The notes: generated from the letters alone by a model not told the origin. DNA of 64,000 nucleotides from Dehalococcoidia bacterium (GCA_965242565.1 OZ251457.1:2904653-2968652); one strand, 5' to 3'; numbered from the stretch's first letter, positions 5,301 through 63,541 are shown. Program-made: numbers and translations.

Positions 5301-8300
5301 ATGGCCCGCCGAACGCCCGCCAACGACCCCGACGCCGTCCGCCGCGCCCTGCGCAGCTGGACCAACCAGCTGATCGACACCGGCGGACGCAACCGTCTGC
5401 TCTACTTCAAACACCTCAAGCGCGGCACCCTCGACCTCGGCCCCGACTCCGGCGCAGACTCCGCCGTCGCCGTCGCCCTCCGGCGCGGGCGCAGCATCAA
5501 ACTCTCCGACTGCTTCCCCGACGACAGCGGCGCCGCCGCCTCCCAGCGCGCTCGCTGGATCCTCCGCAAAGCCCGCGAGCACGAAGAAGAACAGGGCATC
5601 CGCACCCTCTACCTCGGCTGGCGCTTCGCAACCTGGCAGCAGTCCGGCCCCGGCCCCGCTACCCCCAACGCCCCGCTCCTGCTCGCCGCCGCCGAACTCA
5701 CCCCCCAGGGCCGCATGGGCGACGACTTCACGCTCAGCATCGCCGACGACTGGGAGGTCAACCCCAGTATGGCCCAGCTGCTCAAGCGCGAATTCGGCGC
5801 GGAACTCGACGAAGCCGCTCTCGAAGACCTGCTTCAGGCCGACCCGCTCGACGACGCGGCCATCCTCAATCAGCTCCGCCGCGCCTACGACACCATCCCC
5901 GGCTTCAACATCCACGACGGCCTCGTTCTCGGCACCTTTTCCTACGCCAAGCTCCCCATGGTCCGCGACCTTGAAGCCGCCGAAGCCGCCGTCGCCCAGC
6001 ATCCGCTCGTCGCCGCCATCGCCGGCGATCCCCAGGCCCAGGAGCAGCTGCGCGACACTCAGCGCAACGGCGCGCGCGGCCAATCCGTCCCCGGCGGCGA
6101 CGACCTCCCCCCGCGCGACGAGTTCCTCGTGCTCGACGCCGACGGCACCCAAAGCGAAGTGATCAACGCCGCCGTCGCCGGCGCAAACCTCGTCGTCGTC
6201 GGACCGCCCGGCACCGGCAAAAGCCAAACCATCGCCAACCTGCTCGCCACTCTCACCGCCCACGGGCGCTCAACCCTCTTCGTCGCCGAAAAGCGCGCCG
6301 CCATCGACGCCGTCGTCAAACGCCTCAACAGCGTCGGCCTCGGCGACCTCGTGCTCGACCTCCACGAAGGTATGCGCAGCCGTCGCCAAACCGCCGAACA
6401 ACTCGCCGCCGCCCTCGAAACCGCCCACACCGCCCGCGCCCCCAACGTCGAAACCCTCCAGCGCACCCTCAATCAAAGCCGCAAGAGGTTGAGCGACGCA
6501 GAACGCGAACTGCACCAGCCGCACGAACCCTGGGGCCTGTCGATCTATCAGCTCCAGTCCCGCATTCTCGGGATGGGTGATTCGAAGGACATCGGACTGC
6601 GAACAAGCGGTCGCGCCCTCAACGCGCTTCATGGCGAAGCCCTTGAAGCAGCAAAAGATGAGCTCGCCGAGTACATCAATCTCAACGGCGCAGTTCTGGA
6701 TGCGTCCCCCGATGCCCCCTGGGGCGCAGCCCATCGCGCCTCAACGCTGTCGACAAGTGAGCGGGCAGCCGAAGCAGTCCGGCTGCTGGATGACCTGAGC
6801 GGTCGGCTGCTGCCGGAAGTCGAACACGAGCTGGCGGAGATGGCCCAACATCTGGGCATCGACCCGCCCGCGACAGAGTCGATGACGCAAGCGCTGCTTG
6901 AGGCGCTCGCGCGCTTCGAGCCGCTGCACGGGCGGTTTGCCCCCGCAGCGTTCCAAGCCGGCGATGTGGAGAGCCTGCTCTCAGCGCTTGAGCCCGCCGA
7001 GCGCGGTCCTCTTGCCGAACTCAGCGAGACCGACCTGACGCCGTGGGGAGTGACGGTCGAAGAACTCGATCTACGCATTCAGGCGCTTGGCCCTGCTCCT
7101 GAGACCAGCCTCCGCTTACGCGGCGATCGCCTCAAGCGGCTCCGCGGCGACATGCTGGCGCAAGCGATGGCCGATCTGGAGGAGTACATCGATCGTGGCG
7201 GCGCGGAGCTTGACGTATCCGATGCTGCTCCGTGGAGCGCCGCTCACCGAACGTCATCTCTAAGGTCGGAAGCCGCAATCGATGAGGCCGGGCGCCTCCT
7301 TGATCGGCTCAGCGGCGAATTGCTGCCGGCGCTGGAGCGTGAAATCGCCCCGATCGCACAGCAGTTGGGCATCGCTCCGCCCGCGACAGTGCCGATGACG
7401 CGAGCGTTGCTTGAGGCGCTCACGCGCTTTGGGCCGTTGCACGGACGGTTCACGCCCGCAGTGTTCCAGGCCGACGATGTGGAGAGCCTGCTCTCAGCGC
7501 TTGACCCCGCCGAGCGCGGTCCTCTTGCCGGACTGAGCGCGACCGATTCAACGCCGTGGGGCGTAACGGTCGATGAGCTTGACTCACGCATTCAGGTACT
7601 AGGCCAGGCTCCCGAGACTAATTTGCGCTTGCGTGGCGACGCACTCAAGCGGCTCGGCGGCGACTTGCTGGCGCCGATCATGGCTGATCTTGAGGAGTAC
7701 GTCGATCGCGGCGGCGCGGAGCTTGAGGCATCCGATGCTGCTCCGTGGAGCGCCGCTCACCGAGCGTCAACCCTAAGGTCGGAAGCCGCAACCGATGAGG
7801 CAAATCGTCTCCTTGATCGGCTCAGCGGCGAATTACTGCCGGCGCTAGAGCGAGAAAATACGTCAATCGCACAGCATCTGGGCATCGCCCCGCCGCCTAC
7901 GCCAGAGACGATGCGAATACTGTTCGAGGCTCTGGATCGCTTTGCGCCATTGCAGGCGCGCTTTACGCCTGCCGTGTTCGCAGCAGACAACCTGGATAAC
8001 GTTGTCGCGCAACTCGAAGTCGCGAGCCAAGGCCCTCTTGCCGGCGTTGGCGGCGACCAGCGCACTCCTTGGGGCGTGACAGCTGGCGAACTCGATCTGC
8101 GCATCCAGGCCTTGGGTGATGCTCCGCTGTGCGACTTGCGGCTGCGGGGGGACACGCTGAGTGCGCTGGCTGGCGACTCGTTGCAGCGTATGATTGGGCA
8201 CCTCGCCGAGTACATGAATCGCGGCGGTGCCGATCTTGATGCGTCCTTTGGTGCGTGGAGCCCTGTGCATCAGGCGGCGGCCATCGACTCGAACGAACGG

Positions 8301-53773: not shown

Positions 53774-54475
53774 GTGATCTCTCCCGCCGACCAACGCGCC
53801 CGCACCATCCAATCCATGTTCGGGCGGCTCGTGCCCCAATACGACCGCATGAACCGCGTGATGACGGCCGGTCTCGACGGACGCTGGCGGCGCCTCGCCG
53901 TGCGGGCCGCCAAGCCGCGCGGCGAGGCGGTGCTCGACCTCGGCGCGGGCACCGGCGACCTCTCGCGCGAGTTCCGCCGCGCCGGCGCGGCTCGCGTCGT
54001 CGGCGCGGACTTTTCCGCGCAGATGCTCCACCGCGCCCACCGCAAATTCGGCCCACAAACCGCCGACTGGCTCCAGGCCGACGCGCTGCGGCTGCCCTTT
54101 CCCGATGCCGCGTTCGACATCGCGGCCAGCGCTTTCGTTCTGCGCAACCTGGTCGACCTGCCGCGCGCCTTTGAGGAGATGCTGCGCGTCCTGCGCCCCG
54201 GCGGGCGGCTCGTCGCGCTCGACATCACCCACCCGCCCGACGACCTGCGCGGCCGCGTTCTGCGCCTCGGCTTCGAGCGGATCGTCACGCCCGCCGCCGG
54301 TCTGCTCAGCGGCGACCGCGACGCCTACCGCTATCTTCCCAACTCGCTTGCCGGCTACCCGACGGCGGATGACTTGGCCGAAATGCTGCGCGCCGCCGGC
54401 GCAGAGCAAGTCTCATACCAACGCCTCGCCGCCGGCGCCGTCGCCCTCCACACCGCCCACAAACCCTCTCGCTGA
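53774..54475 (+). CDS. ubiE: demethylmenaquinone / ubiquinone-menaquinone biosynthesis C-methyltransferase (UbiE/MenG family)
   Basis: SAM motif VLDLGAGTGD is present, and the sequence is UbiE-like N-terminal to it. Sits in the men cluster. Confidence 0.8.
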   Translation: MISPADQRARTIQSMFGRLVPQYDRMNRVMTAGLDGRWRRLAVRAAKPRGEAVLDLGAGTGDLSREFRRAGAARVVGADFSAQMLHRAHRKFGPQTADWLQADALRLPFPDAAFDIAASAFVLRNLVDLPRAFEEMLRVLRPGGRLVALDITHPPDDLRGRVLRLGFERIVTPAAGLLSGDRDAYRYLPNSLAGYPTADDLAEMLRAAGAEQVSYQRLAAGAVALHTAHKPSR

Positions 54476-54622
54476 CGAGCGATTCCTATCGCTCTCTGGA
54501 TAACGGCTTCAGTGAGTGCTTTGAGACAGCATGAGCGAGGAGGGCAGTCAGCGACAGAAGTGAGACGATTAGCTGCAATGGCAATGTGCGTCGCCATCCG
54601 ATGGATTGACAACGAAATCTCC

Positions 54623-57226
54623 TCAGGCGAGTTCTTTGTCAGAGTACCTTCGCACGCGGTTATGCCATTCCCGCAGCGTCTGAAGCGCTTCGTCGAGCTC
54701 CCTCGGATCGGGTGAACCATAGTTGGTGGTGACGATCTTGTCATGTCGCCGTGCCCAGATCGACACCTTGCTGTAGGAGGTTTGGAGTACCCGATTGTCC
54801 TTTTCCGAAACGTGTACGAGTAGGCGGAACATTTTTGGGTGGACTGCCATATCCGTCGGAGAAACGACTTTCTCAACGACAAGCTCGCGAACAGCTCGCT
54901 CCCAGGCTTCCGACAGTCTGCCGGCCCATTCCGCAGCTCGTTGCTCATACTCTTCCCCAGTGAGGCGGCCTCGAGCATTTTTGAGCTGAGCAAGGTCTTG
55001 TTCCAGTTGCCCTAGCCGTGTTTTCGTGTCCTTGGTTGGCCACGGGTGCCCATCTGAACATGCACCGGGAGTCACGCCACCTTTACGTTCCACAGTCCGT
55101 TTCGTGATCTCAACTCCGCGTTGGCCGGCTTCTAGAGCGAGAGCGCTAACGAAGGTGTGATCGTGCGTGAAGATGATCACTTGGCGGTCGATGGCGAAAT
55201 CCGCGAGTCGTGCAGCAACGCGAGCCCTGCGGTGCTGATCGAGCGATGACACGGGATCATCCAACACGATCGCCGAGTACGACCTGTCGAGAGTCGTGTC
55301 CGTGAAGAAGCCGGCCAACCCCAACGCAGTCTGTTCGCCTTCGCTGAGCACATTGTCCATCTGGTACGAGCGCTTGGCACCGTCAAGCGCGGGCTTGTTG
55401 GTGAGCTGTCCCTTCTGGCCGCCTGTGTCTTCGAGAATGACTCGCTCCAGGAGCAGGTTGTCCGCTTCTTTCGCGAAGCAACTCTGCACCTCGGGGGTGA
55501 CATACTCACGGGTGAGTCGTGTTGCCTCGGACGTGATGGCATTCGTGCGCGTTTGCCCTTTAGCCTTCTCGAGGCGTTTGCGTTCGGCCCGGCGAGCGAC
55601 TTCGCTCCGAATTGCCGCGCGTGCGCCGGCCATGAGCCGACTGTCTTGATTCTCCTTGATCCGGGTCTCGATGCCGCGAAGCTGCCGCTCATACGCGGTC
55701 TTATCGAGCTGCGCTGCCGATGCGCGCACGCGATCGGCTTCCGCGCGGAGTCCGTTGGCTTGAGAATCGCTCGGAACGGCATCCAACGCTTCCGCCAAAT
55801 TGCCACGTTCGATCGCGCGGACAACGTTCTGAAACGCTGTGATTTGTTCGCGGGATTGGAGAGCGAGCCCCTGATCGATCCTTTGGACGTGATCGAGAGC
55901 GACGGCCACATCGGTTGGTTCGATTGCCGCGGATCGCACTTGGGTTTCGGCAGTGTTCGCATCGCTCTCGGCGGCTTGCGCCTGTCGCTCTGTGCGATCT
56001 TGTACGGCTGCCTCGAAGCGGCGCAGGCGCGCCTGGGCCTCGTCAGATAGATCTTGATGGCAGAGCACGCACTTCGAGTCTGCGCCGAGGCGCGGGAACG
56101 TATCGCCCGGATAAGCGTCCGTTTCCGAGAAGCTGCGAGCAGCTTCCCAGAGCGCGCGCCACGTTTCGGAGCCGACCCCGGTTACTGGCTGGTCGCCTGA
56201 GGATTCTTGCGCGGCGATCGTGGCAGCTGCTCGCAGCTGCTCTGCTTTCACCTTCTTTTCGGCGAGCGCGGTGATCGCGTCGCGGCTGAGGTCTTTGTCG
56301 AGAGACGTCAGGTGATTCGCGAGTACGTCGAGGGCGCTCGCAAAATCCTCCAGGCGTTCGCGTTCGCGCGCAGGGCCCGAAGCTTGCAGGGTGTGAGCTT
56401 GCCGTTCTAGCGCCTCGATCTCAGCGTCAACATCGGCGGCAACCCGACAAGCGCGTGCTATCTCGTCGTTCGTCGTCGACGGCGAAAGCTTGCCCAGAAA
56501 GCGGGCTGCTTGGCCGTCTGGTGAAACGCTTGGCAGCGTTGTTGCTCTGTTCTCGTTTTCGCCGAGCAGCCGATCGAGCTCGGCCCTGACTCCGTCGCAT
56601 GCGCGACTGAGGCCGTCGAACAAGTTGAGCTCTGCTGGTCGGTACGTGACCTCTGACTCCTTCGTCAAGAACGCTTCGCCGCAGCTCTCGTCAAAGAAGC
56701 CGATCCGGCTTGCTGCTGGCGGGACATCTGCCCACTGACACCGGATGGCCTCTTCACCATGAAGTGAAATGCCGACCTCAGCTCGAGGCGAAGAATCTGT
56801 GCTGGTCGCGAAGATGTCCGGCAGGACCGGTTCGGTGACTCGAGCCCGTGAGATCTGCTTGATCAATCGGGCATACCCGGATTTGCCACTTCCGTTGTCT
56901 CCGTAGACGACCGTCAGGCCCGTCGGCGCGAATGTGAGCGTCTCGCCAGCTGCGAGCGCGTTCACGTTGACCGTCTGGGCTATCTCGACCAAGCCAACGG
57001 CACCGCTGGTCTCGCGCCCTGCGGCAGCGGCGAGCGTGAACGTAGCTTGTGGGTCATCGTCGCCCGCAGCGAGCCGTTCAGCGATTGCTCGATGATCAGC
57101 CGCGCCGAGGGTTTCACCCTGCGCGAGTCTGCTCAGGACGCGACGCTGCCATCCCGGGCGGCCTTCAGCCCATTTGACGAGGTCCGACGCGATCGAAGAC
57201 ATGTGGGCAGAGTACCACACCGACAC
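54623..57226 (-). CDS. Rad50/RloC-like ABC-type ATPase with a ~500-aa coiled-coil insertion and a mid-coil CxxC zinc-hook-like motif, plus a C-terminal ~200-aa domain of unknown function (possible nuclease)
   Basis: Walker A GDNGSGKSG (aa ~110). The ABC signature-like LSEGEQ, Walker B/D-loop AIVLDDPVSSLD and H-loop IIFTHD are all near aa 620-680. CVLCH sits at aa 386-389, midway between Walker A and the signature motif. The 3' end of the gene is markedly lower in GC (~52%). Confidence 0.65.
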   Translation of the reverse strand: MSVWYSAHMSSIASDLVKWAEGRPGWQRRVLSRLAQGETLGAADHRAIAERLAAGDDDPQATFTLAAAAGRETSGAVGLVEIAQTVNVNALAAGETLTFAPTGLTVVYGDNGSGKSGYARLIKQISRARVTEPVLPDIFATSTDSSPRAEVGISLHGEEAIRCQWADVPPAASRIGFFDESCGEAFLTKESEVTYRPAELNLFDGLSRACDGVRAELDRLLGENENRATTLPSVSPDGQAARFLGKLSPSTTNDEIARACRVAADVDAEIEALERQAHTLQASGPARERERLEDFASALDVLANHLTSLDKDLSRDAITALAEKKVKAEQLRAAATIAAQESSGDQPVTGVGSETWRALWEAARSFSETDAYPGDTFPRLGADSKCVLCHQDLSDEAQARLRRFEAAVQDRTERQAQAAESDANTAETQVRSAAIEPTDVAVALDHVQRIDQGLALQSREQITAFQNVVRAIERGNLAEALDAVPSDSQANGLRAEADRVRASAAQLDKTAYERQLRGIETRIKENQDSRLMAGARAAIRSEVARRAERKRLEKAKGQTRTNAITSEATRLTREYVTPEVQSCFAKEADNLLLERVILEDTGGQKGQLTNKPALDGAKRSYQMDNVLSEGEQTALGLAGFFTDTTLDRSYSAIVLDDPVSSLDQHRRARVAARLADFAIDRQVIIFTHDHTFVSALALEAGQRGVEITKRTVERKGGVTPGACSDGHPWPTKDTKTRLGQLEQDLAQLKNARGRLTGEEYEQRAAEWAGRLSEAWERAVRELVVEKVVSPTDMAVHPKMFRLLVHVSEKDNRVLQTSYSKVSIWARRHDKIVTTNYGSPDPRELDEALQTLREWHNRVRRYSDKELA

Positions 57227-57311
57227 CGGATCGGATCACCCAGCCATCAACGTTTCGAGACTGGCCAAGGCGAGGAGCGATGGGAGGGAACGCTTTGGGC
57301 TGGCCCATGGG

Positions 57312-60149
57312 TTAGAGGCGCCGGTTGGAGACGACGGGTTCGGAGGCGAGCAGGCGACGCAGCGGCTCCAGGTTGGGGAGGTCGAGGATCTCAGCGAGAC
57401 CGTCGTCGAGCTTCGCTCGGGCGGGGTCGTCGGCCATTTGGGGGAGGGGCAGGAACTCGACCTCGGCCATTTCGTTGAAGAGGGCGTGGAGGGCGTCGAG
57501 CTGGTCCTGCGTGAGTTGTCGGACGTCGAGGATCGGCATTTGGGCGAGGTCGGCTTTCTTCAGCTTTACCCATGGTCCTCGAGTTGTGTTCCGCGTGGCG
57601 AGCAGGGATAGCAGTCCCAAGCTGCTGTTGAGCCAGAGCGCCAACGGTCGTTCGCGTCCCGTATCACCGACATTGACCGGCCAGAACACATTCGACAGCA
57701 CCTGCCGCTCCGTGCAGATTGCGATGGTGCGGCAAGTGTTCAACCACAGGCGCTCGCCGATCAGGAGTTTGCCCGCCTTCGGCCAGAGCAGGTCGAGCGG
57801 CTTGAGCTTTCGTCGCGGTCTGGGCGTCGTCAAGGGCGAGAGGTAGTTGTCCGGTTCGGCGAGCAGCCTGGTGCGTTTGTCGGTATCGTGGCCGTCGATC
57901 ATCTCGTAGGCGGTGACGCTTTGCGTTCGCTCGAAGCCGTCCCACACATCGCGCACATCGGGCCCGATCTGCCCGAGTTCGGTCAGGGTGGTGAGCGGTA
58001 TCGAACCGACCTCTCTCGCACCGGGCATTCGCACGCTTCCGTCGCGCAGTACTCGCGACGCGATGCGTGTCACGTCCGCTCGCGCGAACTGCACGCCCAG
58101 CCACCGCTCGCCCAGGATCTGGTCCGACGGCATCAGCAGCACTTCGCCCATGTGCCGATCATCGACCGACAGGAGCGATGTACCGTCTGCGTCGATGCGC
58201 GCCGGAGCGATCGTCTCAACGGCTTGCGCGATCTTCTGGGCGTCGATGACGCCTCGGGGATTGCGCCAGAGGCTGACGAAGCGCGTCTCGTAGTCGGGCG
58301 GGTCGCCGTTTTCGCGGCGGCGGGTGGCGATCAGCAGGGCCTCAGAGAGATCGGTGCTGTCGGAGAAGTTCCAACGTTCTGGGTCGTGGGACGCGATCAC
58401 GGTGTCAATCGTGAAATCGCGCTCGATCAGGGAGCGCGTTTGTTGCCATGAGGGGCCGGTGCAGACCGTGAGCGGCAGCACGAGGGCGAGCCGGCCTTCG
58501 CCGGGGCGCAGTTTCGGCGCGGCGGCGGCGACGAACGCGGAGCCGAGGCCGGCGGTGACAGCGCCGTTGCGGGTCTTGAGTCGGCGTTTGAGCTCGGCCT
58601 GGAGTTTGCTTCGTTCCGGCTGGGGGAGGCTGCCGAAGAGCAGGTTGCCGCCGACGGAGCGGGTGAACGGAGGGTTCATGATCACGAGGTCGAGGTCGGG
58701 CAGTCTGACGGTGACGCCTTCGGCGGCGCCCTTGAGGCCCTCGCCGCTGACGCGCCCGACGTCCTGAGGGACGATGGCGAGATCGCCGCCGCCGCCGAGC
58801 GACATTTGCACGGGGGCTTCGCGGCTGCCGAGGAATTCGAGCGAGCCGAGCCGGATGTTGTCGCTCTCAACGCCGAGCGGCATCGTGTAGAGGTTCATTT
58901 TGTCGAATTGGATGTCGGGGTTGAGCAGGGCCAGGCTGGTGGCGGCGAAGTGGATGGCGGAGAGTTGCACATCGAAGCCGATCAGCGCCTGTTCGACAAG
59001 GTGTTTGTGCAGCGAGGGGATGTCGCGTCCGCCGGCGTCGGCATGGCGGCGTTGCGTTTCGGAGGCGACGGCCATCAGCAGCGTGCCGGTGCCGCAGGCA
59101 AGGTCGGCCACGTTGAGCGAGGCGGGGAATTCGTGATCGCTCCAGTCGACATCCTTGGGCCAGCCGTCGAAGACGAGGTGGGCGAGCATCGCGGCGGCGG
59201 GTACCGAGGTGTAGTAGGCGCCACTGAATTTGGCGTCGGAGAGGAGTGTGTGGAAGAGGCGGCCGGAGAGGTCGTGGCCTTCGAGGTGGCGGGTTTTGTG
59301 GACCGCTTCAAGCAGCGGACGCAGGACGGGCTGTTGGTGTTCGGGATCGCCGTAGGCGAGCACGCGCAGGATTTCTCTGGCGACCTCGAAGACGGGCACG
59401 TAGTCGATGTCGGTGCAGATCTCCTCCCAAGCCGCTTGCAAGGGTTTGGCGCCCTCGGCGGCGACTTCCTCGACGGAGGGGATGTCGTCGCGCACGAGCG
59501 CGAGCCGGCGGTGGAACGCAAGCGCGTTGAACAGCACCAGGCAGCCGATTCGCTTGCCCGCTTCGCGTTCCTTTTCGTCGGCCGTTTCGGCGACGACTTC
59601 GGCGACGAGTCGGGCGACGCGGGCGTGGGTGTTGAGGCCGCGGACGGCCTCGGTGAGCGCGTAGCCGACTTCGAGCGTGGCGGCGTAGACGCGGTCGGTA
59701 CCCTCGATCTCGAGCGGGAGCAGGCGCAGCTGGGCGGCCAACGCCTGCACCTGGCCTTTGCGCAGGATCGGATCGTCGTAGATCTCGGCGCGGGAGCTGT
59801 GCAGGTACCACTCGAGATCGCTGAGCCAGCTGAGCACGTCGCCGACGTCGTCTTCGACTTTGAGGTAGTCGGGGTAGAGCACGCCGAGGCGAGCGATGGC
59901 GTCGGGGAAGTCGTCCACGCGCTCGGCGAGTTGGCGGTCCAGCTCGGTGCGGCTGCCCTCCCACTTGCACTCGATCAGGATCAGCTCGCCGGAGGGCAGC
60001 TCGAAGCGGAGGTCGGGTGCGTCGCCGTCGCTGCGGCGCTCGGCGCGGGCGGGGATGCCGCGCGCTCTGAGTAGCTCGCCGAGCAGCACGTTGACGGCTT
60101 CTTCGCGGACGGTTTCGCCGCTGTGGGCGCGTTTGGAATGGGATGGCAT
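57312..60149 (-). CDS. Type IIG (MmeI-like) restriction-modification enzyme: N-terminal PD-(D/E)xK nuclease motif, gamma-class N6-adenine MTase, C-terminal target-recognition region
   Basis: D46...E60-C-K62 in DLRFELPSGELILIECKWEG. MTase motif I DLACGTGTLL precedes motif IV VIMNPPFT (NPPF). Length is 945 aa. Confidence 0.7.
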   Translation of the reverse strand: MPSHSKRAHSGETVREEAVNVLLGELLRARGIPARAERRSDGDAPDLRFELPSGELILIECKWEGSRTELDRQLAERVDDFPDAIARLGVLYPDYLKVEDDVGDVLSWLSDLEWYLHSSRAEIYDDPILRKGQVQALAAQLRLLPLEIEGTDRVYAATLEVGYALTEAVRGLNTHARVARLVAEVVAETADEKEREAGKRIGCLVLFNALAFHRRLALVRDDIPSVEEVAAEGAKPLQAAWEEICTDIDYVPVFEVAREILRVLAYGDPEHQQPVLRPLLEAVHKTRHLEGHDLSGRLFHTLLSDAKFSGAYYTSVPAAAMLAHLVFDGWPKDVDWSDHEFPASLNVADLACGTGTLLMAVASETQRRHADAGGRDIPSLHKHLVEQALIGFDVQLSAIHFAATSLALLNPDIQFDKMNLYTMPLGVESDNIRLGSLEFLGSREAPVQMSLGGGGDLAIVPQDVGRVSGEGLKGAAEGVTVRLPDLDLVIMNPPFTRSVGGNLLFGSLPQPERSKLQAELKRRLKTRNGAVTAGLGSAFVAAAAPKLRPGEGRLALVLPLTVCTGPSWQQTRSLIERDFTIDTVIASHDPERWNFSDSTDLSEALLIATRRRENGDPPDYETRFVSLWRNPRGVIDAQKIAQAVETIAPARIDADGTSLLSVDDRHMGEVLLMPSDQILGERWLGVQFARADVTRIASRVLRDGSVRMPGAREVGSIPLTTLTELGQIGPDVRDVWDGFERTQSVTAYEMIDGHDTDKRTRLLAEPDNYLSPLTTPRPRRKLKPLDLLWPKAGKLLIGERLWLNTCRTIAICTERQVLSNVFWPVNVGDTGRERPLALWLNSSLGLLSLLATRNTTRGPWVKLKKADLAQMPILDVRQLTQDQLDALHALFNEMAEVEFLPLPQMADDPARAKLDDGLAEILDLPNLEPLRRLLASEPVVSNRRL

Positions 60150-60180
60150 GTGGGCGATTGTCGCATATGCGGGCGCGGCG

Positions 60181-60801
60181 TCAGCGCGACGCCGCCAGAA
60201 CTACCCCCGCCCGCCCGCTCCCTTTGACCAGTCGGCCCGCCCAGCGCGTCGACGGCGCGTCCGACGCCTCCAGCCAGCCGCAGGAGTCGATCGCAAACCC
60301 CGCCGCCGCCAGCGGCCCGCGCAGCCCTGCGTCCAATGATGTCGGCGTCGGCGGCGCGCAGCCCGGCGGGGCTGCTTCGGCATTCAGGATGAGCTCTACG
60401 TCAGCCTGATCTGCGCAGAGGTGGTCGGCGAGCGCGGCGAACGCTGCGGCGTCCTCCAGGATCAGCCGGAGCAGCGCCGCCCAGGGGAAGTGAACGGTGA
60501 GCCGCCGCGCCGCGCCCTCCAGCTCCGGCGGCGGGCGCTGGGCATCGGCGGCTGCGAAGATGGCATTCGGCGCGCCGCCGCGCTCCGGGCGGCGCGCAGC
60601 GCGTTGCGCCGCTCGCCGCAGCGCGTCGCGGTCCGTGTCCAAGCCTACCGCCAGCCAGTCGGGGTGCTCGCGCGCGAAGCGCCGCACGTGCCCGCCGTCG
60701 CCGCAGCCCAGGTCGAGCAGCAGCGCCTGGTACGGGGAGCGCAGCGCCGCCCACTCCGCCGCGTCGCAGCGCCGCCCCCCGGAGCGCGTCATCAGTTCCA
60801 C
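60181..60801 (-). CDS. small class I SAM-dependent methyltransferase. First gene of the three-gene minus-strand group, 31 bp upstream of the Type IIG gene
   Basis: Motif I LLDLGCGDGGHV. Size and FPW-containing pattern are reminiscent of small rRNA/tRNA methyltransferases, but the substrate is unknown. Confidence 0.55.
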   Translation of the reverse strand: MELMTRSGGRRCDAAEWAALRSPYQALLLDLGCGDGGHVRRFAREHPDWLAVGLDTDRDALRRAAQRAARRPERGGAPNAIFAAADAQRPPPELEGAARRLTVHFPWAALLRLILEDAAAFAALADHLCADQADVELILNAEAAPPGCAPPTPTSLDAGLRGPLAAAGFAIDSCGWLEASDAPSTRWAGRLVKGSGRAGVVLAASR

Positions 60802-60881: not shown

Positions 60882-61994
60882 ATGCCTACGCCCGCCCGCG
60901 TCGTGTTTCTGCCCCAGGAAGACGCCCCGCTCGCCGTCGAACACGTCGAACTGCCCGACCCCGGGCCGCTTCAGGTCGTTGTGCGCCAGTTCGCCAGCGG
61001 TATCTGCCACTCGCAGCTGCACCAGATGCACAACCCGCGCCCCAGCGACCAGGTGCTCGGGCACGAGGCGACGGGCGAGGTGATCGCCGTGGGCTCCGAG
61101 GTGACCAACGTCGCCGTGGGCGACATCGTGTTCGTGACCTGGGTGCCGCGCGATCCGTCGGTCGCCGCCCGCGCGGTGGAGGAGATCAGCATCGAGCGCC
61201 CCAACGGACGCCGCGCCACCACGCGCAATGTGTTCACCTGGGCCGACCACACGATCGCCGACGAGAAGTACATCGTGAAGGTGCCGCAGGACACGCGGCG
61301 CGATGTGACCTCGATCATCGGCTGCGCGGTGCTGACCGGTTCGGGGGCGGTCTACAACACAGCGGCGGTCCGCGAGGGCGACTCGGTCGCGATCTTCGGC
61401 GTCGGCGGCGTCGGCCTCTCCGCCGTGGTCGCGGCTTCCGTGGTCAAGGCGGATCCGATCATCGCCGTCGACCTCGACAACGAGAAGCTGGAGTTCGCCA
61501 AGCGGTTCGGCGCGACGCACGGGGTGAACGCGGGCGGCGGCGATGCGATCGAGCAGGTCAAGGCGCTCACCGCGGGCGCGGAGGGCGTCACCACCAGCTT
61601 CGGCGAGCCCGTCTCCGGCGTCGACTTCGCCTTCGACTGCATCGGGCGCGAGGTCACGATGGGCCAAATTCTCCGCGCGGTGCGCCCCGGTGTGCTGGGC
61701 GACGAGGGCGGCGGCACCGCGGTGCTGGTCGGCGTGCCGCAGTCCGGTCTCCGGTTCAGCGAGGATGACATGCGGGGGCTGCTGATCAATGAGAAGCGCT
61801 ACATCGGCTCGATCGGCGGTTCGTGTCGGCCGGATCGGGATTTCCCGATGTTTCTGGCGTGGTCCGACGATGGGGCGCTGGATCTGGACGCGATGGTGAC
61901 GGAGCGCTTCACGATCGGGCAGATCAACGAGGCGACGACGGCGCTGGAGCACGGCGAGATCTTCGGCCGGGCGATCATGGAGTTTGACGACTAG
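60882..61994 (+). CDS. zinc-dependent alcohol dehydrogenase (MDR family)
   Basis: GHEATGEV, the Rossmann AIFGVGGVGLS, and ADH-like overall sequence. Confidence 0.8.
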   Translation: MPTPARVVFLPQEDAPLAVEHVELPDPGPLQVVVRQFASGICHSQLHQMHNPRPSDQVLGHEATGEVIAVGSEVTNVAVGDIVFVTWVPRDPSVAARAVEEISIERPNGRRATTRNVFTWADHTIADEKYIVKVPQDTRRDVTSIIGCAVLTGSGAVYNTAAVREGDSVAIFGVGGVGLSAVVAASVVKADPIIAVDLDNEKLEFAKRFGATHGVNAGGGDAIEQVKALTAGAEGVTTSFGEPVSGVDFAFDCIGREVTMGQILRAVRPGVLGDEGGGTAVLVGVPQSGLRFSEDDMRGLLINEKRYIGSIGGSCRPDRDFPMFLAWSDDGALDLDAMVTERFTIGQINEATTALEHGEIFGRAIMEFDD

Positions 61995-62449
61995 CCCTCA
62001 AGGCGGCTCAGCTCTGCGGCGACTTCGTCGGCGGTGACGGTGCGGGTGATCGCGCCGACGGCGTGGTTGAGGGTGATCTGTCGGATTTGCGAGTCCCGAG
62101 CGATGACGCGCTCGATTTCACGCTCGTGTTTGAGGATGAGTTGGAGTTGTTCGTCGGCGTCTCCAGAGCCGAGCTGTTCCTGGCGAAAGCGGAGTTGAAT
62201 GATCCGGAGGCCGTTTCGCATCGCGCGGAGAGCGGGCAGGCGCGCGCCGCGCTTAGCGTAGCGGTCTTTCGTGACGATCGCGTCGTAGTCGTGCGCCACT
62301 GCAAACGCCAGCACGACCGCGTCGGGCTGATTGTCGAGTCTGAGCGGCTTGGCGTGATCGGCCTGCCAGCCGCGCTCGCGCAGCGGGGCCGCCACCGCTT
62401 CAGCGATGTTCTCATCCAGCAGCAGGCGTATGGACCTGGGCAGCGTCAT
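61991..62449 (-). CDS. DUF5615-family (PIN-like) putative toxin
   Basis: N-terminal IRLLLDENI pattern. Paired with and overlapping the upstream DUF433 gene. Duplicate of 63086..63541. Confidence 0.65.
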   Translation of the reverse strand: MTLPRSIRLLLDENIAEAVAAPLRERGWQADHAKPLRLDNQPDAVVLAFAVAHDYDAIVTKDRYAKRGARLPALRAMRNGLRIIQLRFRQEQLGSGDADEQLQLILKHEREIERVIARDSQIRQITLNHAVGAITRTVTADEVAAELSRLEG

Positions 62450-63047
62450 ACAGCGCCTGTTCAAATTCGAGAATGCGGCGCGCCTGATAGACGGTCAGCC
62501 CGTATTCGTCGACCATCTGCTCGGTGTGCGACGCGGTGGGGTAGGTGTTCGCAAGCATCGCCGTGCGCAGCCGGCGGGCGCGGGCGGTCGGCTCGCCTGC
62601 GCAGTAGTTTGGGCGCATTTCCACGGCGTCGGCGAAGCGGAAGAGGCGTCCGAGGGGGCCTTCGTGGCGGCGTTCGCTCCAGAAGCGTTGGAGGTCGATC
62701 TCGGTGGGCAGCGCCGCCTCGAGCGCGCGCTGGGGGAGGGTTGCGGCCCACTGGGGGCAGGCGTCGTCGAGGCGGGCGAGCGCGTCGGGGAGGTGGGCCT
62801 CGGCGAGGCCGAGTTCGAGCAGCTTGGCGGCGGCGAGGACGCGGTGGTGGTCGTTCCAGCTGTAGTACCAGGGCGGGTCGCCGAACTCCTCGCGATCCGG
62901 GTCGTCGTTGATCACCGAGGCAGGCAGCAAACCTTCCGCGCGCCAACGCTCGAGCTGCTCGGGATCCAACCCCGAAAGCCCGGCGACGATGGCCGGCGAG
63001 ATCGCGCCTTCGTCGCGCAGCGGATCGGACTCTGCGTGACAGCTCAT
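62412..63047 (-). CDS. DUF433-domain putative antitoxin with a long N-terminal extension
   Basis: C-terminal DUF433-like HTEQMVDEYGLTVYQARRILEF. Overlaps the downstream DUF5615 gene. Near-identical nucleotide copy at 63800..64000. Confidence 0.6.
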   Translation of the reverse strand: MSCHAESDPLRDEGAISPAIVAGLSGLDPEQLERWRAEGLLPASVINDDPDREEFGDPPWYYSWNDHHRVLAAAKLLELGLAEAHLPDALARLDDACPQWAATLPQRALEAALPTEIDLQRFWSERRHEGPLGRLFRFADAVEMRPNYCAGEPTARARRLRTAMLANTYPTASHTEQMVDEYGLTVYQARRILEFEQALYDAAQVHTPAAG

Positions 63048-63085
63048 TGCATTCGTCTTTCGTCGTCGCTCTCAGCGTAGACGGC

Positions 63086-63541
63086 TCAGCCACCCGTATC
63101 ACGCGGCTCCAGGCGGTGCAGTGCAGCGGCCACCTCGTCGGAAGTGATGGTGCGGGTGATGCCGCCGACATCGTGGTTGATGATCAACAGGCGGATATCC
63201 GAGTTGGGGGTGATCGCTTGCTCAATTATGGGTAGGTGGTCGAGGATCAGCTGGAGCTGCGCCTCGGTCGATCCTGCGGCGGGCGCATTCTGTCGAAAGC
63301 GGAGTTGGATGATGCGCAAGCCGCCGTTCATGGCGCGAAGCGCCGCGAGGCGATCCTCACGTTGGCTGTAACGATCCTTGGTGATGATGGCGTCGTAGCC
63401 GCGAGCGACAGCGAACGCGAGGACGACAGGGTCAAGCGCGCTGGTCAGTTCCAAGCCATGCAGGTGGTCCACCTCGATCCCGCGTTGCCGCAGGGCCGCT
63501 TCGAGGCTGGGCGCCATGTTCTCATCCAGCAGCAGGCGCAT
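63086..63541 (-). CDS. DUF5615-family (PIN-like) putative toxin, second copy
   Basis: MRLLLDENMAPSLEAALRQRGIEVDHL...; paralogue of 61991..62449. Confidence 0.65.
   Translation of the reverse strand: MRLLLDENMAPSLEAALRQRGIEVDHLHGLELTSALDPVVLAFAVARGYDAIITKDRYSQREDRLAALRAMNGGLRIIQLRFRQNAPAAGSTEAQLQLILDHLPIIEQAITPNSDIRLLIINHDVGGITRTITSDEVAAALHRLEPRDTGG

Follow-up and report, generated by a model that had tools for sequence, protein, structure and literature searches.

The window analysed here is the whole 64,000-nucleotide stretch of Dehalococcoidia DNA, in which three open reading frames of 867, 945 and 206 codons lie on the minus strand beside menG of a menaquinone gene cluster (Table 1). Their positions agree in every coordinate with those of the first-pass annotation, and the three co-oriented genes are separated by gaps of 85-110 bp (ATPase to 945-aa gene) and 31 bp (945-aa to 206-aa gene). 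The sharp fall in GC past menG that had been pointed out was also found, down to 0.55 at positions 54500-54999 against 0.70-0.77 in the flanks. The annotation had taken 54480-60801 as one inserted three-gene island. An insertion adjoining menG was confirmed by two relatives that lack the block, L174 and L176, but both its extent and its gene number had to be revised. Because these empty sites keep the order menG, small methyltransferase, alcohol dehydrogenase (ADH), the insert is 54476-60180 only, with two genes. Alignable DNA stops at 54475 and restarts at 60181, and the gap between menG and the npmA-like gene at the empty sites is 16 bp and 408 bp, respectively. The comparison of relatives between menG and the dehydrogenase that had been proposed thus upheld the insertion for the two-gene block and failed for the small methyltransferase, which stays in place. 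The insert has a GC content of 0.637, compared with 0.72-0.76 in the flanking genes. No repeats were found at its borders, and the TetR, MenB-like ECH and UbiA synteny around menG was present in every relative compared.

Table 1. Features of the locus, with positions counted from the first nucleotide of the window.
Feature	Position	Strand	Remarks
menG/ubiE demethylmenaquinone methyltransferase, flank	53774..54475	+	homologues bear Ubie_methyltran and that name
Inserted segment, 2 genes, ~5.7 kb	54476..60180		bounded by the stop codons of menG and the npmA-like gene
RloC-family ABC ATPase (PADLOC PDC-S06 / Pfam AAA_13), 867 aa	54623..57226	-	profile matches
C-terminal four-helix-bundle domain, residues 725-867	54626..55054	-	predicted HEPN-like anticodon-nuclease effector
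Candidate triad R777, E781, H828	54896-54898, 54884-54886, 54743-54745	-
ABC signature LSEGE, Walker B VLDDP, D-loop, H-loop FTH, residues 627-688	55163..55348	-	invariant columns
CxxC zinc-hook motif CVLC, residues 386-389	56060..56071	-	midway between Walker A and ABC signature
Walker A GDNGSGKS, residues 109-116	56879..56902	-	invariant across sets of 36 and 79 homologues
Solitary Type IIG-like restriction-modification fusion, 945 aa	57312..60149	-	unannotated Chloroflexota-centred family
C-terminal region, residues 621-945	57315..58289	-	presumed target-recognition domain and helical tail
Gamma-class N6-adenine DNA methyltransferase core, residues 290-620	58290..59282	-	motifs X, I, IV
N-terminal PD-(D/E)xK nuclease domain, residues 30-135	59745..60062	-	E37, P45-D46, E60-x-K62
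NpmA/KamB-family 16S rRNA (adenine1408-N1) methyltransferase homologue, 206 aa	60181..60801	-	resident flank outside the insert; Pfam NpmA

The 206-aa protein matched Pfam NpmA (PF24675) over residues 12-204 with an E-value of 7e-45 and 153 bits (cutoff 60). Since its NCBIfam KamB score (E 8e-35, 120 bits) is below the equivalog cutoff of 350 bits, it is a member of the NpmA/KamB family and not a named orthologue; it also fell under the equivalog cutoffs of NpmA, NpmB and WarA. It resembles the NpmA/KamB enzymes in size and in its full-length Pfam match. Unlike the NpmA/KamB resistance cassettes, however, it is encoded by a conserved chromosomal gene of uncultured Dehalococcoidia-like genomes, found beside ADH at the empty sites and likewise in L080, L089 and L091. 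Its composition is host-like (GC 0.76, GC3 0.87). The gene is an ordinary backbone resident, with a predicted role as an m1A1408 rRNA methyltransferase, and is unrelated to the two inserted defence genes. A tempting over-reading is thereby corrected: the locus holds a two-gene insertion beside a housekeeping-like rRNA methyltransferase, not a three-gene system.

The prototypes of RloC, a wobble-nucleotide-excising anticodon nuclease, are those of Geobacillus kaustophilus and Acinetobacter baylyi, and it is to this family that the inserted ATPase had been likened. The ATPase matched PADLOC PDC-S06 with an E-value of 1e-168 over residues 12-860 and Pfam AAA_13 with 42.7 bits (cutoff 36). B. cereus proteins named RloC by DefenseFinder are named PDC-S06, a set of 13 profiles, by PADLOC (PMC11811056, supplementary file 6). 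As described earlier, the ABC motifs are split, with about 510 aa between Walker A and the ABC signature (residues 627-631), followed by Walker B (652-657) and the H-loop histidine H688. The hook cysteines C386 and C389 are conserved in 78 and 79 of 79 homologues, and a CxxC zinc hook is a defining trait of RloC (PMC2610378). Like RloC, the ATPase has ABC motifs with a long helical insert bearing a central CxxC, a solitary gene without SbcD-like partner, a length inside the published 658-897 aa range, and a family linked now and then to Type I and III restriction-modification loci. A conserved N-terminal extension of about 90 aa (W19, W26, Q27) and a conserved GVGSxTWRxLWEAAR motif beside the hook set it apart from RloC. 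Its true start is probably M9 at 57202, giving 859 aa, because homologues (about 857 aa) begin there.

The C-terminal domain, put at about 200 aa in the first pass, is a discrete domain of about 143 aa. Its fold, an up-down bundle of four helices in which an insert separates helices 2 and 3, is compatible with HEPN. Its spacing R777-x3-E781-x46-H828 agrees with the catalytic triad of RloC, Arg-X3-Glu-X36-52-His (PMC2610378), and C291, R692, E696 and H737 of G. kaustophilus RloC correspond to C386, R777, E781 and H828 with a steady offset of about 90 residues. The domain is thus like that of RloC in size (about 140 aa) and in its collinear Arg-x3-Glu-x46-His; it is unlike it in having Arg instead of Ser before the triad His and in being unrecognised by the AAA_13 and PrrC profiles. 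The AAA_13 alignment stops at HMM position 577 of 713 (residue 696) and the PADLOC PrrC model aligns to residues 651-701 alone, both short of the domain. Among 79 homologues R777 is conserved in 72, H828 in 76 and the adjacent E776 in all. The triad Glu drifts even among close homologues, another difference from RloC, and occupies the E781 column in 47/79 and a neighbouring column in 49/79. This placement at +3, +4 or +5 depending on the homologue counts against the best explanation, as do the blank Pfam search of the isolated domain (nothing at E<=10) and the lack of a canonical HEPN Rx4-6H, the local sequence being RRHD (W-A-R-R-H828-D around the His). An Ex3R motif is present (E773-x3-R777). 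The identity check suggested for this domain therefore gave a fit to the RloC triad and a HEPN-compatible fold, and no Pfam family. The bundle is unlikely to be instead a sensor or oligomerisation domain without catalytic activity, in a protein that acts, for instance, through ATP depletion, DNA binding or a host nuclease recruited in trans. The charged and strictly conserved E776, R777, H828 and D829 are typically seen in the active site of a metal-independent RNase, they line up with the RloC triad that mutations have validated, and HEPN families with variant motifs are on record.

Homologues of the ATPase are solitary on chromosomes and in 290 plasmid records. Adjacency to an SbcD/Mre11-like gene, named earlier as the sign of SbcC/Rad50 repair machinery, was not seen; no such partner (Metallophos) adjoins the ATPase gene in the window or its homologues in the inspected loci, and the family is not among the 25 commonest of 128 immediate neighbours. 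Those neighbours are enriched in restriction-modification genes of Type I, II, III and ISP, with Eco57I-type (Type IIG) methylases among them, so the pairing of an RloC-type ATPase with a Type IIG enzyme, thought to be undescribed, has counterparts beside other homologues. A role in SbcC/Rad50-type DNA repair or chromosome maintenance in place of an immune effector would accord with the Rad50 and SMC heads being the best PDB sequence matches (Rad50 for residues 627-688) and with a zinc-hook-like CxxC within a long helical insert. It is nevertheless highly improbable, as apart from the missing partner the gene is accessory, with a foreign GC3, occurrence on plasmids and no copy at the empty sites, and as the protein carries an additional conserved C-terminal domain with invariant Glu, Arg and His not found in Rad50/SbcC. 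The RloC-like character proposed in the first pass is borne out by the ABC head, the hook, the triad in a HEPN-compatible domain and the lack of this partner.

The evidence on the 945-aa protein supports a single-chain Type IIG architecture of PD-ExK nuclease, gamma-class m6A methyltransferase and C-terminal region, and the PD-ExK and NPPF motifs reported before are indeed present. The methyltransferase motifs are X (HDLSGRLFHxLL...GAYYTS), I (DLACGTG) and IV (NPPF, residues 492-495, positions 58665-58676); they are retained in both clades of the family, including a paralogue clade of 30% identity, and the core, which gives weak profile matches to MTase_II and MAD2, is its best-conserved region (column conservation 0.85). 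E37, P45-D46 and E60-x-K62 (here E60-C-K62) do not vary among 70 sequences from the protein's own clade, and the nuclease domain has a structural match to an Hjc-like fold. Foldseek gave the Type IIG enzyme BpuSI (E 6e-9), the best full-length match, and DrdV (E 2e-5), and further fold matches were to Hjc and the m6A DNA methyltransferases M.BseCI, CamA, M.TaqI and HsdM. The C-terminal 325 aa, modelled with moderate confidence, align partly with the regions of M.BseCI, CamA and BpuSI that recognise the target. Two findings count against the best explanation: the methyltransferase core of the model is of low confidence (pLDDT 40-60), and the C-terminal region lacks the variability frequent in target-recognition domains.

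The label MmeI-like did not hold. Neither the whole protein nor its N- and C-terminal parts matched the Pfam models MmeI_N, MmeI_hel, MmeI_Mtase, MmeI_TRD or MmeI_C, and the PDB sequence search matched neither MmeI nor DrdV; the nearest structures are BpuSI and DrdV. Membership in the MmeI family was rejected. Pfam scans of the protein and its parts returned solely weak Methyltransf_25 and MTS matches, with Eco57I and N6_Mtase unmatched. Like BpuSI and MmeI/DrdV (Type IIG/IIL), the protein has the order nuclease, helical linker, NPPF/Y m6A methyltransferase and presumed target-recognition region, in one polypeptide in the range of about 900-1000 aa encoded by a solitary gene. Unlike them, its nuclease domain resembles Hjc resolvase, a long insert separates motifs I and IV, and its relatives are mainly Chloroflexota MAGs with about 60% identity along the entire length. 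The family, unannotated and mostly from Chloroflexota, comprises over 2,700 clusters, and in 79 loci of homologues there was no conserved neighbour gene. It is improbable that the protein is some other methyltransferase-centred defence or epigenetic protein, for example a BREX/MADS-like solitary methylase with a degenerate nuclease or a Type IV-like enzyme. The protein does give weak profile matches to MADS MAD2 and its fold matches BrxX/PglX, the C-terminal region is not hypervariable, and the paralogue clade carries D...EAE where ExK would stand; yet the catalytic residues are invariant in the protein's own clade, BREX or MADS partner genes occur in 0/79 loci, and BpuSI is the top full-length structural match.

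The Type IIG-like enzyme and the ATPase are most likely co-located and not a coupled system, because their co-occurrence is limited to one narrow syntenic lineage and their codon compositions differ. GC3 is 0.66 for the ATPase and 0.84 for the 945-aa gene, host genes having 0.87-0.92. The closest non-syntenic relative of the 945-aa protein is 80% identical and stands alone at another location, while that of the ATPase is at most 49% identical. The pair was absent from all 79 loci of 945-aa homologues and from all 80 metagenome loci of ATPase homologues, and was retained only in four syntenic close relatives (L080, L089, L091 and a genome 98-99% identical), so a back-up suicide layer specific to this pair, as first envisaged, found no support. 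The shared orientation and short gaps may reflect co-transcription and functional interplay, which counts against the best explanation.

A coupled system, in which the Type IIG-like enzyme silences the ATPase and a phage anti-restriction factor triggers it, has its precedent in PrrC/EcoprrI (PMC2610378; PMC3710099). Like that Type Ic-associated system, the locus has an ABC-type NTPase with a predicted C-terminal HEPN-class tRNA nuclease beside a restriction-modification enzyme, on the same strand 85-110 bp apart and kept so in the four relatives, and the ATPase family is often found beside restriction-modification genes, Eco57I-type included. PrrC, however, lacks a coiled-coil/zinc-hook insert and is always embedded in hsdMSR, whereas the linkage of the ATPase to its neighbour is not conserved. 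Coupling is improbable here, given a single insertion site in one narrow lineage, the unequal codon composition and phylogenetic depth of the two genes, and L091, in which the ATPase is intact despite a frameshift in the 945-aa homologue. In published RloC, moreover, control comes from the protein's own ATPase and hook, and linkage to restriction-modification genes is rare (PMC2610378). A little less probable still is a two-layer unit of this lineage in which the single-chain enzyme restrains an anticodon nuclease that restriction inhibition frees. If true, PrrC-style coupling would reach as far as a partner of Type IIG, and divergent effector alleles would then speak of an arms race against tRNA-repair or inhibitor proteins of phages.

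The preferred reading, to which we give a probability of roughly 0.68, is that the segment 54476-60180 forms a small defence islet between menG and the npmA-like gene, made up of two single-gene immune systems that were acquired independently. Each inserted gene is an independent defence of a known, single-gene type, and there is no new three-gene system. Their enzymatic activities, and any cross-talk between them, are predictions. The 945-aa enzyme would methylate host DNA at its own site and cut unmethylated incoming DNA. By analogy with RloC, the head and hook of the ATPase might sense DNA ends or damage, or the loss of restriction during infection; its nuclease would then be freed onto tRNA anticodon loops, and their cleavage would halt translation and abort the infection.

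The 945-aa family, single-chain nuclease-methyltransferases with thousands of members mostly in Chloroflexota/Dehalococcoidia MAGs and without Pfam or NCBIfam coverage, merits a profile of its own and a REBASE-style specificity survey. The PDC-S06 subfamily found here is readable as RloC-type, and its candidate triad R777/E781/H828 and hook C386/C389 make this directly testable. Between close strains, the alleles of the predicted C-terminal effector of the ATPase are strongly divergent.

Insertion beside menG is real. Orthologues of this neighbouring gene were used to seek empty sites, and examination of their contigs between menG and the alcohol dehydrogenase (ADH) gene, the comparison proposed in the first-pass annotation, showed that the block is missing in two related genomes, L174 and L176. 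In L174 (MenG 82% identical) 16 bp separate menG from a convergent NpmA-like methyltransferase gene, next to which comes the ADH gene, and L176 (MenG 76% identical) has the same gene order with a gap of 408 bp. In DNA alignments, homology to the empty site stops at 54475, the menG stop codon, and restarts exactly at 60181, the stop codon of the small methyltransferase gene, and the insert is therefore the 5.7 kb from 54476 to 60180, with the genes of the ATPase and the 945-aa protein only. The three-gene island proposed earlier is thus reduced to two inserted genes: the 206-aa gene is already there at both empty sites, and the new three-gene arrangement does not stand, this methyltransferase being an unrelated resident. 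No target-site duplications or inverted repeats were found around the insert, only chance GC-rich matches, and a promoter and terminator scan was uninformative, its counts not exceeding the shuffle expectation. The three minus-strand ORFs lie where they had been annotated, and the fall in GC beside menG is likewise seen, with 0.55 at 54500-54999 versus 0.70-0.77 in the flanks, 0.57-0.69 onward as far as about 60000 and a return to 0.72-0.76 in the 206-aa gene. The ATPase gene has a GC3 of 0.66 and the 945-aa gene one of 0.84, against 0.87-0.92 in host genes.

Coordinates of the genes, segments and related loci (L-numbers are loci in other genomes or plasmids)
Feature	Location	Strand	Remark
ATPase ORF	window 54623-57226	minus	867 aa
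945-aa protein ORF	window 57312-60149	minus	945 aa
Small methyltransferase ORF	window 60181-60801	minus	206 aa; NpmA/KamB-family homologue between menG and ADH
Same homologue in relatives	L174:9719-10345; L176:9444-10058; L080:9358-9969; L089:6403-7014		between menG and ADH
ATPase N-terminal segment	window 56957-57202		residues 9-90
ATPase motif upstream of CxxC	window 56075-56180		residues ~350-384
ATPase mosaic comparison	window 54626-54960; L080:15191-15511; L089:10001-12574		window residues ~755-867
ATPase frame loss	L080:15160-15200		
Plasmid ATPase genes	NZ_KX009059.1 102444-105056; NZ_CP132068.1 38588-41167		L172; L173
945-aa paralogue clade	L046-L079		for example L048:10001-12742
Same-genome pairs of 945-aa family	L008/L034; L045/L058; L027/L029		several Dehalococcoidia genomes with two
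Split 945-aa homologue	L091:6342-9175		
DUF433-like + PIN_10/DUF5615 pairs	window 61991-63171	minus	
Same pairs in a relative	L080:1-896, 5993-7064, 7103-8159		

The ATPase is, on its sequence, best placed in the RloC/PDC-S06 family, as a new member for which a candidate triad and a candidate hook can be named. It matches the PADLOC family PDC-S06 at full length, from residue 12 to 860 (E 1e-168), and Pfam AAA_13, the family containing PrrC and RloC, with 42.7 bits (threshold 36). PDC-S06 is a 'guilt-by-embedding' candidate in PADLOC, and in a survey of the B. cereus group (PMC11811056, supplementary file 6) the very same proteins carry the name RloC in DefenseFinder and PDC-S06 in PADLOC. By its published definition (PMC2610378), RloC combines the motifs of an ABC ATPase with a zinc hook, formed by a CxxC in the middle of a Rad50-like helical insert, and with a C-terminal triad of the form Arg-X3-Glu-X36-52-His. 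The motifs read by eye in both inserted proteins are all present, in the ATPase as Walker A GDNGSGKS (109-116), ABC signature LSEGE (627-631), Walker B VLDDP (653-657), H688 and the CxxC CVLC (386-389). The candidate hook is C386-x2-C389 and the candidate triad R777-x3-E781-x46-H828; compared with G. kaustophilus RloC, with triad R692/E696/H737 and hook cysteine C291 (PMC2610378), the landmarks all lie a constant 85-95 residues further along, a difference that corresponds to an additional conserved N-terminal segment. Among 79 homologues of 27-49% identity the hook cysteines are conserved in 78 (C386) and 79 (C389), and in the C-terminal predicted HEPN-like domain E776 is found in 79/79, R777 in 72/79, H828 in 76/79, D829 in 66/79, E780 in 49/79 and the triad residue E781 in 47/79. 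Since homologues start at M9, the true product is probably 859 aa.

The earlier RloC-like label is supported by AAA_13, PDC-S06, the CxxC and the candidate triad; no profile recognised the C-terminal domain. The AAA_13 and PrrC profile alignments end near residue 700, the domain alone has no Pfam match, and searching PDB by sequence and by profile turned up no solved relative of it, only noise. Canonical HEPN domains differ in having Rx4-6H where this domain has RRHD; the upstream E773-x3-R777 is present. An exhaustive profile search with the domain found 1,389 representatives, and in the best 150 of these it lies at or near the C-terminus, full-length proteins being about 835-890 aa with one of 1,022 aa and shorter matches appearing to be fragments. 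The pattern is that of a single fixed architecture, not of an effector module shuffled between proteins.

The conserved N-terminal segment of about 90 aa precedes Walker A, has nearly invariant W19, W26 and Q27 in the 79 homologues, and is without counterpart in the published description of RloC. Just upstream of the CxxC a strongly conserved GVGSxTWRxLWEAAR...FP is found (G352, W356, F377 and P378 nearly invariant), and its conservation at this place suggests that the 'hook', instead of being a bare zinc hook, may form a small domain at the apex. The ATPase is also mosaic among close strains, the N-terminal ~750 residues being 80-86% identical and the C-terminal effector domain only ~40-45% identical to the allele of the syntenic relatives L080 and L089, which suggests that the predicted nuclease domain has undergone recombination or diversifying selection. 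In L080, an 89%-identity relative, this domain is out of frame past '...KKNKG' and the gene call of 919 aa follows the wrong frame; the gene may truly be a pseudogene, or the 11x long-read assembly may carry an indel error there.

ATPase homologues were solitary in the loci inspected: one is flanked by metabolic genes (L084), one has an Mrr-like gene nearby (L085), one in a Modestobacter integrase island lies just downstream of a Type III mod/res pair (L087), and one adjoins a transposase (L088). The family occurs on 290 plasmid records, 111 from Klebsiella, 45 from Pseudomonas and 20 from Staphylococcus, and among the records listed the plasmid copies are a lone gene, mostly annotated just 'AAA family ATPase'. 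A census of 128 immediate neighbours, from 79 of 80 metagenome loci with a scorable neighbour, gave by Pfam N6_Mtase 6, N6_N4_Mtase 4, Eco57I 4, Methylase_S 3, ResIII 2, HsdM_N 2, DNA_methylase 1 and Type_ISP_C 1, plus integrases and resolvases, and by PADLOC methyltransferases and specificity subunits of Types I, II and III. DNA methyltransferases make up at least ~9% of these neighbours, in agreement with the 8 of 72 RloC genes located within Type I or III loci (PMC2610378). An SbcD/Mre11 gene next to homologues had been named as the sign of a repair ATPase; this partner was absent at all the homologue loci examined, so an SbcCD/repair-complex identity was rejected and the RloC-like reading survives.

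The 945-aa protein appears from its motifs and predicted fold to be a Type IIG-like enzyme, and its large family is covered by no profile. Its previous description as MmeI-like Type IIG holds for the architecture, nuclease and methyltransferase motifs with a predicted fold closest to BpuSI, and fails for the family: no MmeI, Eco57I or N6_Mtase model matched in Pfam or NCBIfam, a sequence search of PDB gave no relative, and membership of these three families was rejected. Matches were found to generic methyltransferase models in Pfam (weak), PADLOC MTase_II (1e-8) and MADS MAD2 (3e-5 to 3e-6). A conserved PD-(D/E)xK site (E37, P45-D46, E60-C-K62, conserved as E60-x-K62) is followed by motif X of gamma-class m6A DNA methyltransferases (HDLSGRLFHxLL...GAYYTS), motif I (DLACGTG) and motif IV (NPPF, 492-495), and these conserved residues fit a fused restriction-modification enzyme. 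The AF2 model is moderate overall (pLDDT 67), good for the N-terminal 290 residues and poor for the methyltransferase core; its top Foldseek match is the Type IIG enzyme BpuSI (E 6e-9, probability 1.0), followed by DrdV, BsaXI, M.BseCI, CamA and BrxX. A weak match of the family profile to the Hjc protein ST1444 brings the PD...ExK residues into register. Assignment of the C-terminal 325 aa as the specificity domain is only tentative, since they are no more variable than the remainder.

At 90% identity this family forms more than 2,716 clusters, almost all of ~941 aa, essentially without precomputed Pfam domains and, where named, 'hypothetical protein'. At least 458 places in the species-representative genome set encode relatives, among the matches listed overwhelmingly in Chloroflexota/Dehalococcoidia MAGs. 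It splits into one clade with ~60% identity to the query and a second, paralogous one with ~30%, some genomes having two copies; the second clade keeps motifs X, I and IV but reads D...E-A-E at the nuclease site where the first has E-x-K. No conserved neighbour or operon partner was found in 79 genome loci, and the neighbours that recur (SDR, luciferase-like oxidoreductases, CoA-transferase, ABC transporter) do so because they are abundant metabolic paralogues in those genomes. Motifs, fold and the lack of a fixed neighbour together form the signature expected of a single-polypeptide Type IIG-like enzyme.

Both inserted proteins are accordingly roughly as first read, and the claim of a three-gene system falls. 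The ATPase was found within 10 kb of 945-aa homologues at 0 of 79 loci and the 945-aa gene near ATPase homologues at 0 of 80, and outside the window the pair was seen only in L080, L089, L091 and a 98-99% identical genome, all close relatives that carry it at this menG/npmA site. The empty-site genome of L174 holds a lone 945-aa copy, 80% identical and ~50 kb distant, and the closest non-syntenic ATPase relative is at most 49% identical. Functional cross-talk of the PrrC-EcoprrI kind between the two is possible, as the three genes are co-oriented on the minus strand with gaps of 31 bp and 85-110 bp, but nothing besides this adjacency favours it. The most economical explanation is that the two genes were acquired separately and came to share a single permissive spot, making it a mini defence island. 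In L091 a frameshift in a G-run at about residue 230 splits the 945-aa homologue, which is called at 692 aa and is only 59-66% identical to the window protein, against 75-94% for the flanking genes; decay, allele replacement or an assembly error could each account for this.

The 206-aa gene is a backbone gene, unrelated to the inserted pair. Its product matches Pfam NpmA (16S rRNA m1A1408 methyltransferase) over its full length (E 7e-45) and the NCBIfam models KamB, WarA, NpmB and NpmA, all under the equivalog cutoffs; the gene has host-like composition (GC3 0.87) and adjoins ADH in all relatives examined. This homologue is kept as a chromosomal gene in several related uncultured Chloroflexota-like genomes and might make them intrinsically resistant to aminoglycosides or serve rRNA in some other way. 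Just past the ADH gene, DUF433-like genes (~211-236 aa) paired with PIN_10/DUF5615 genes, in up to three repeats in relatives, look like toxin-antitoxin modules.
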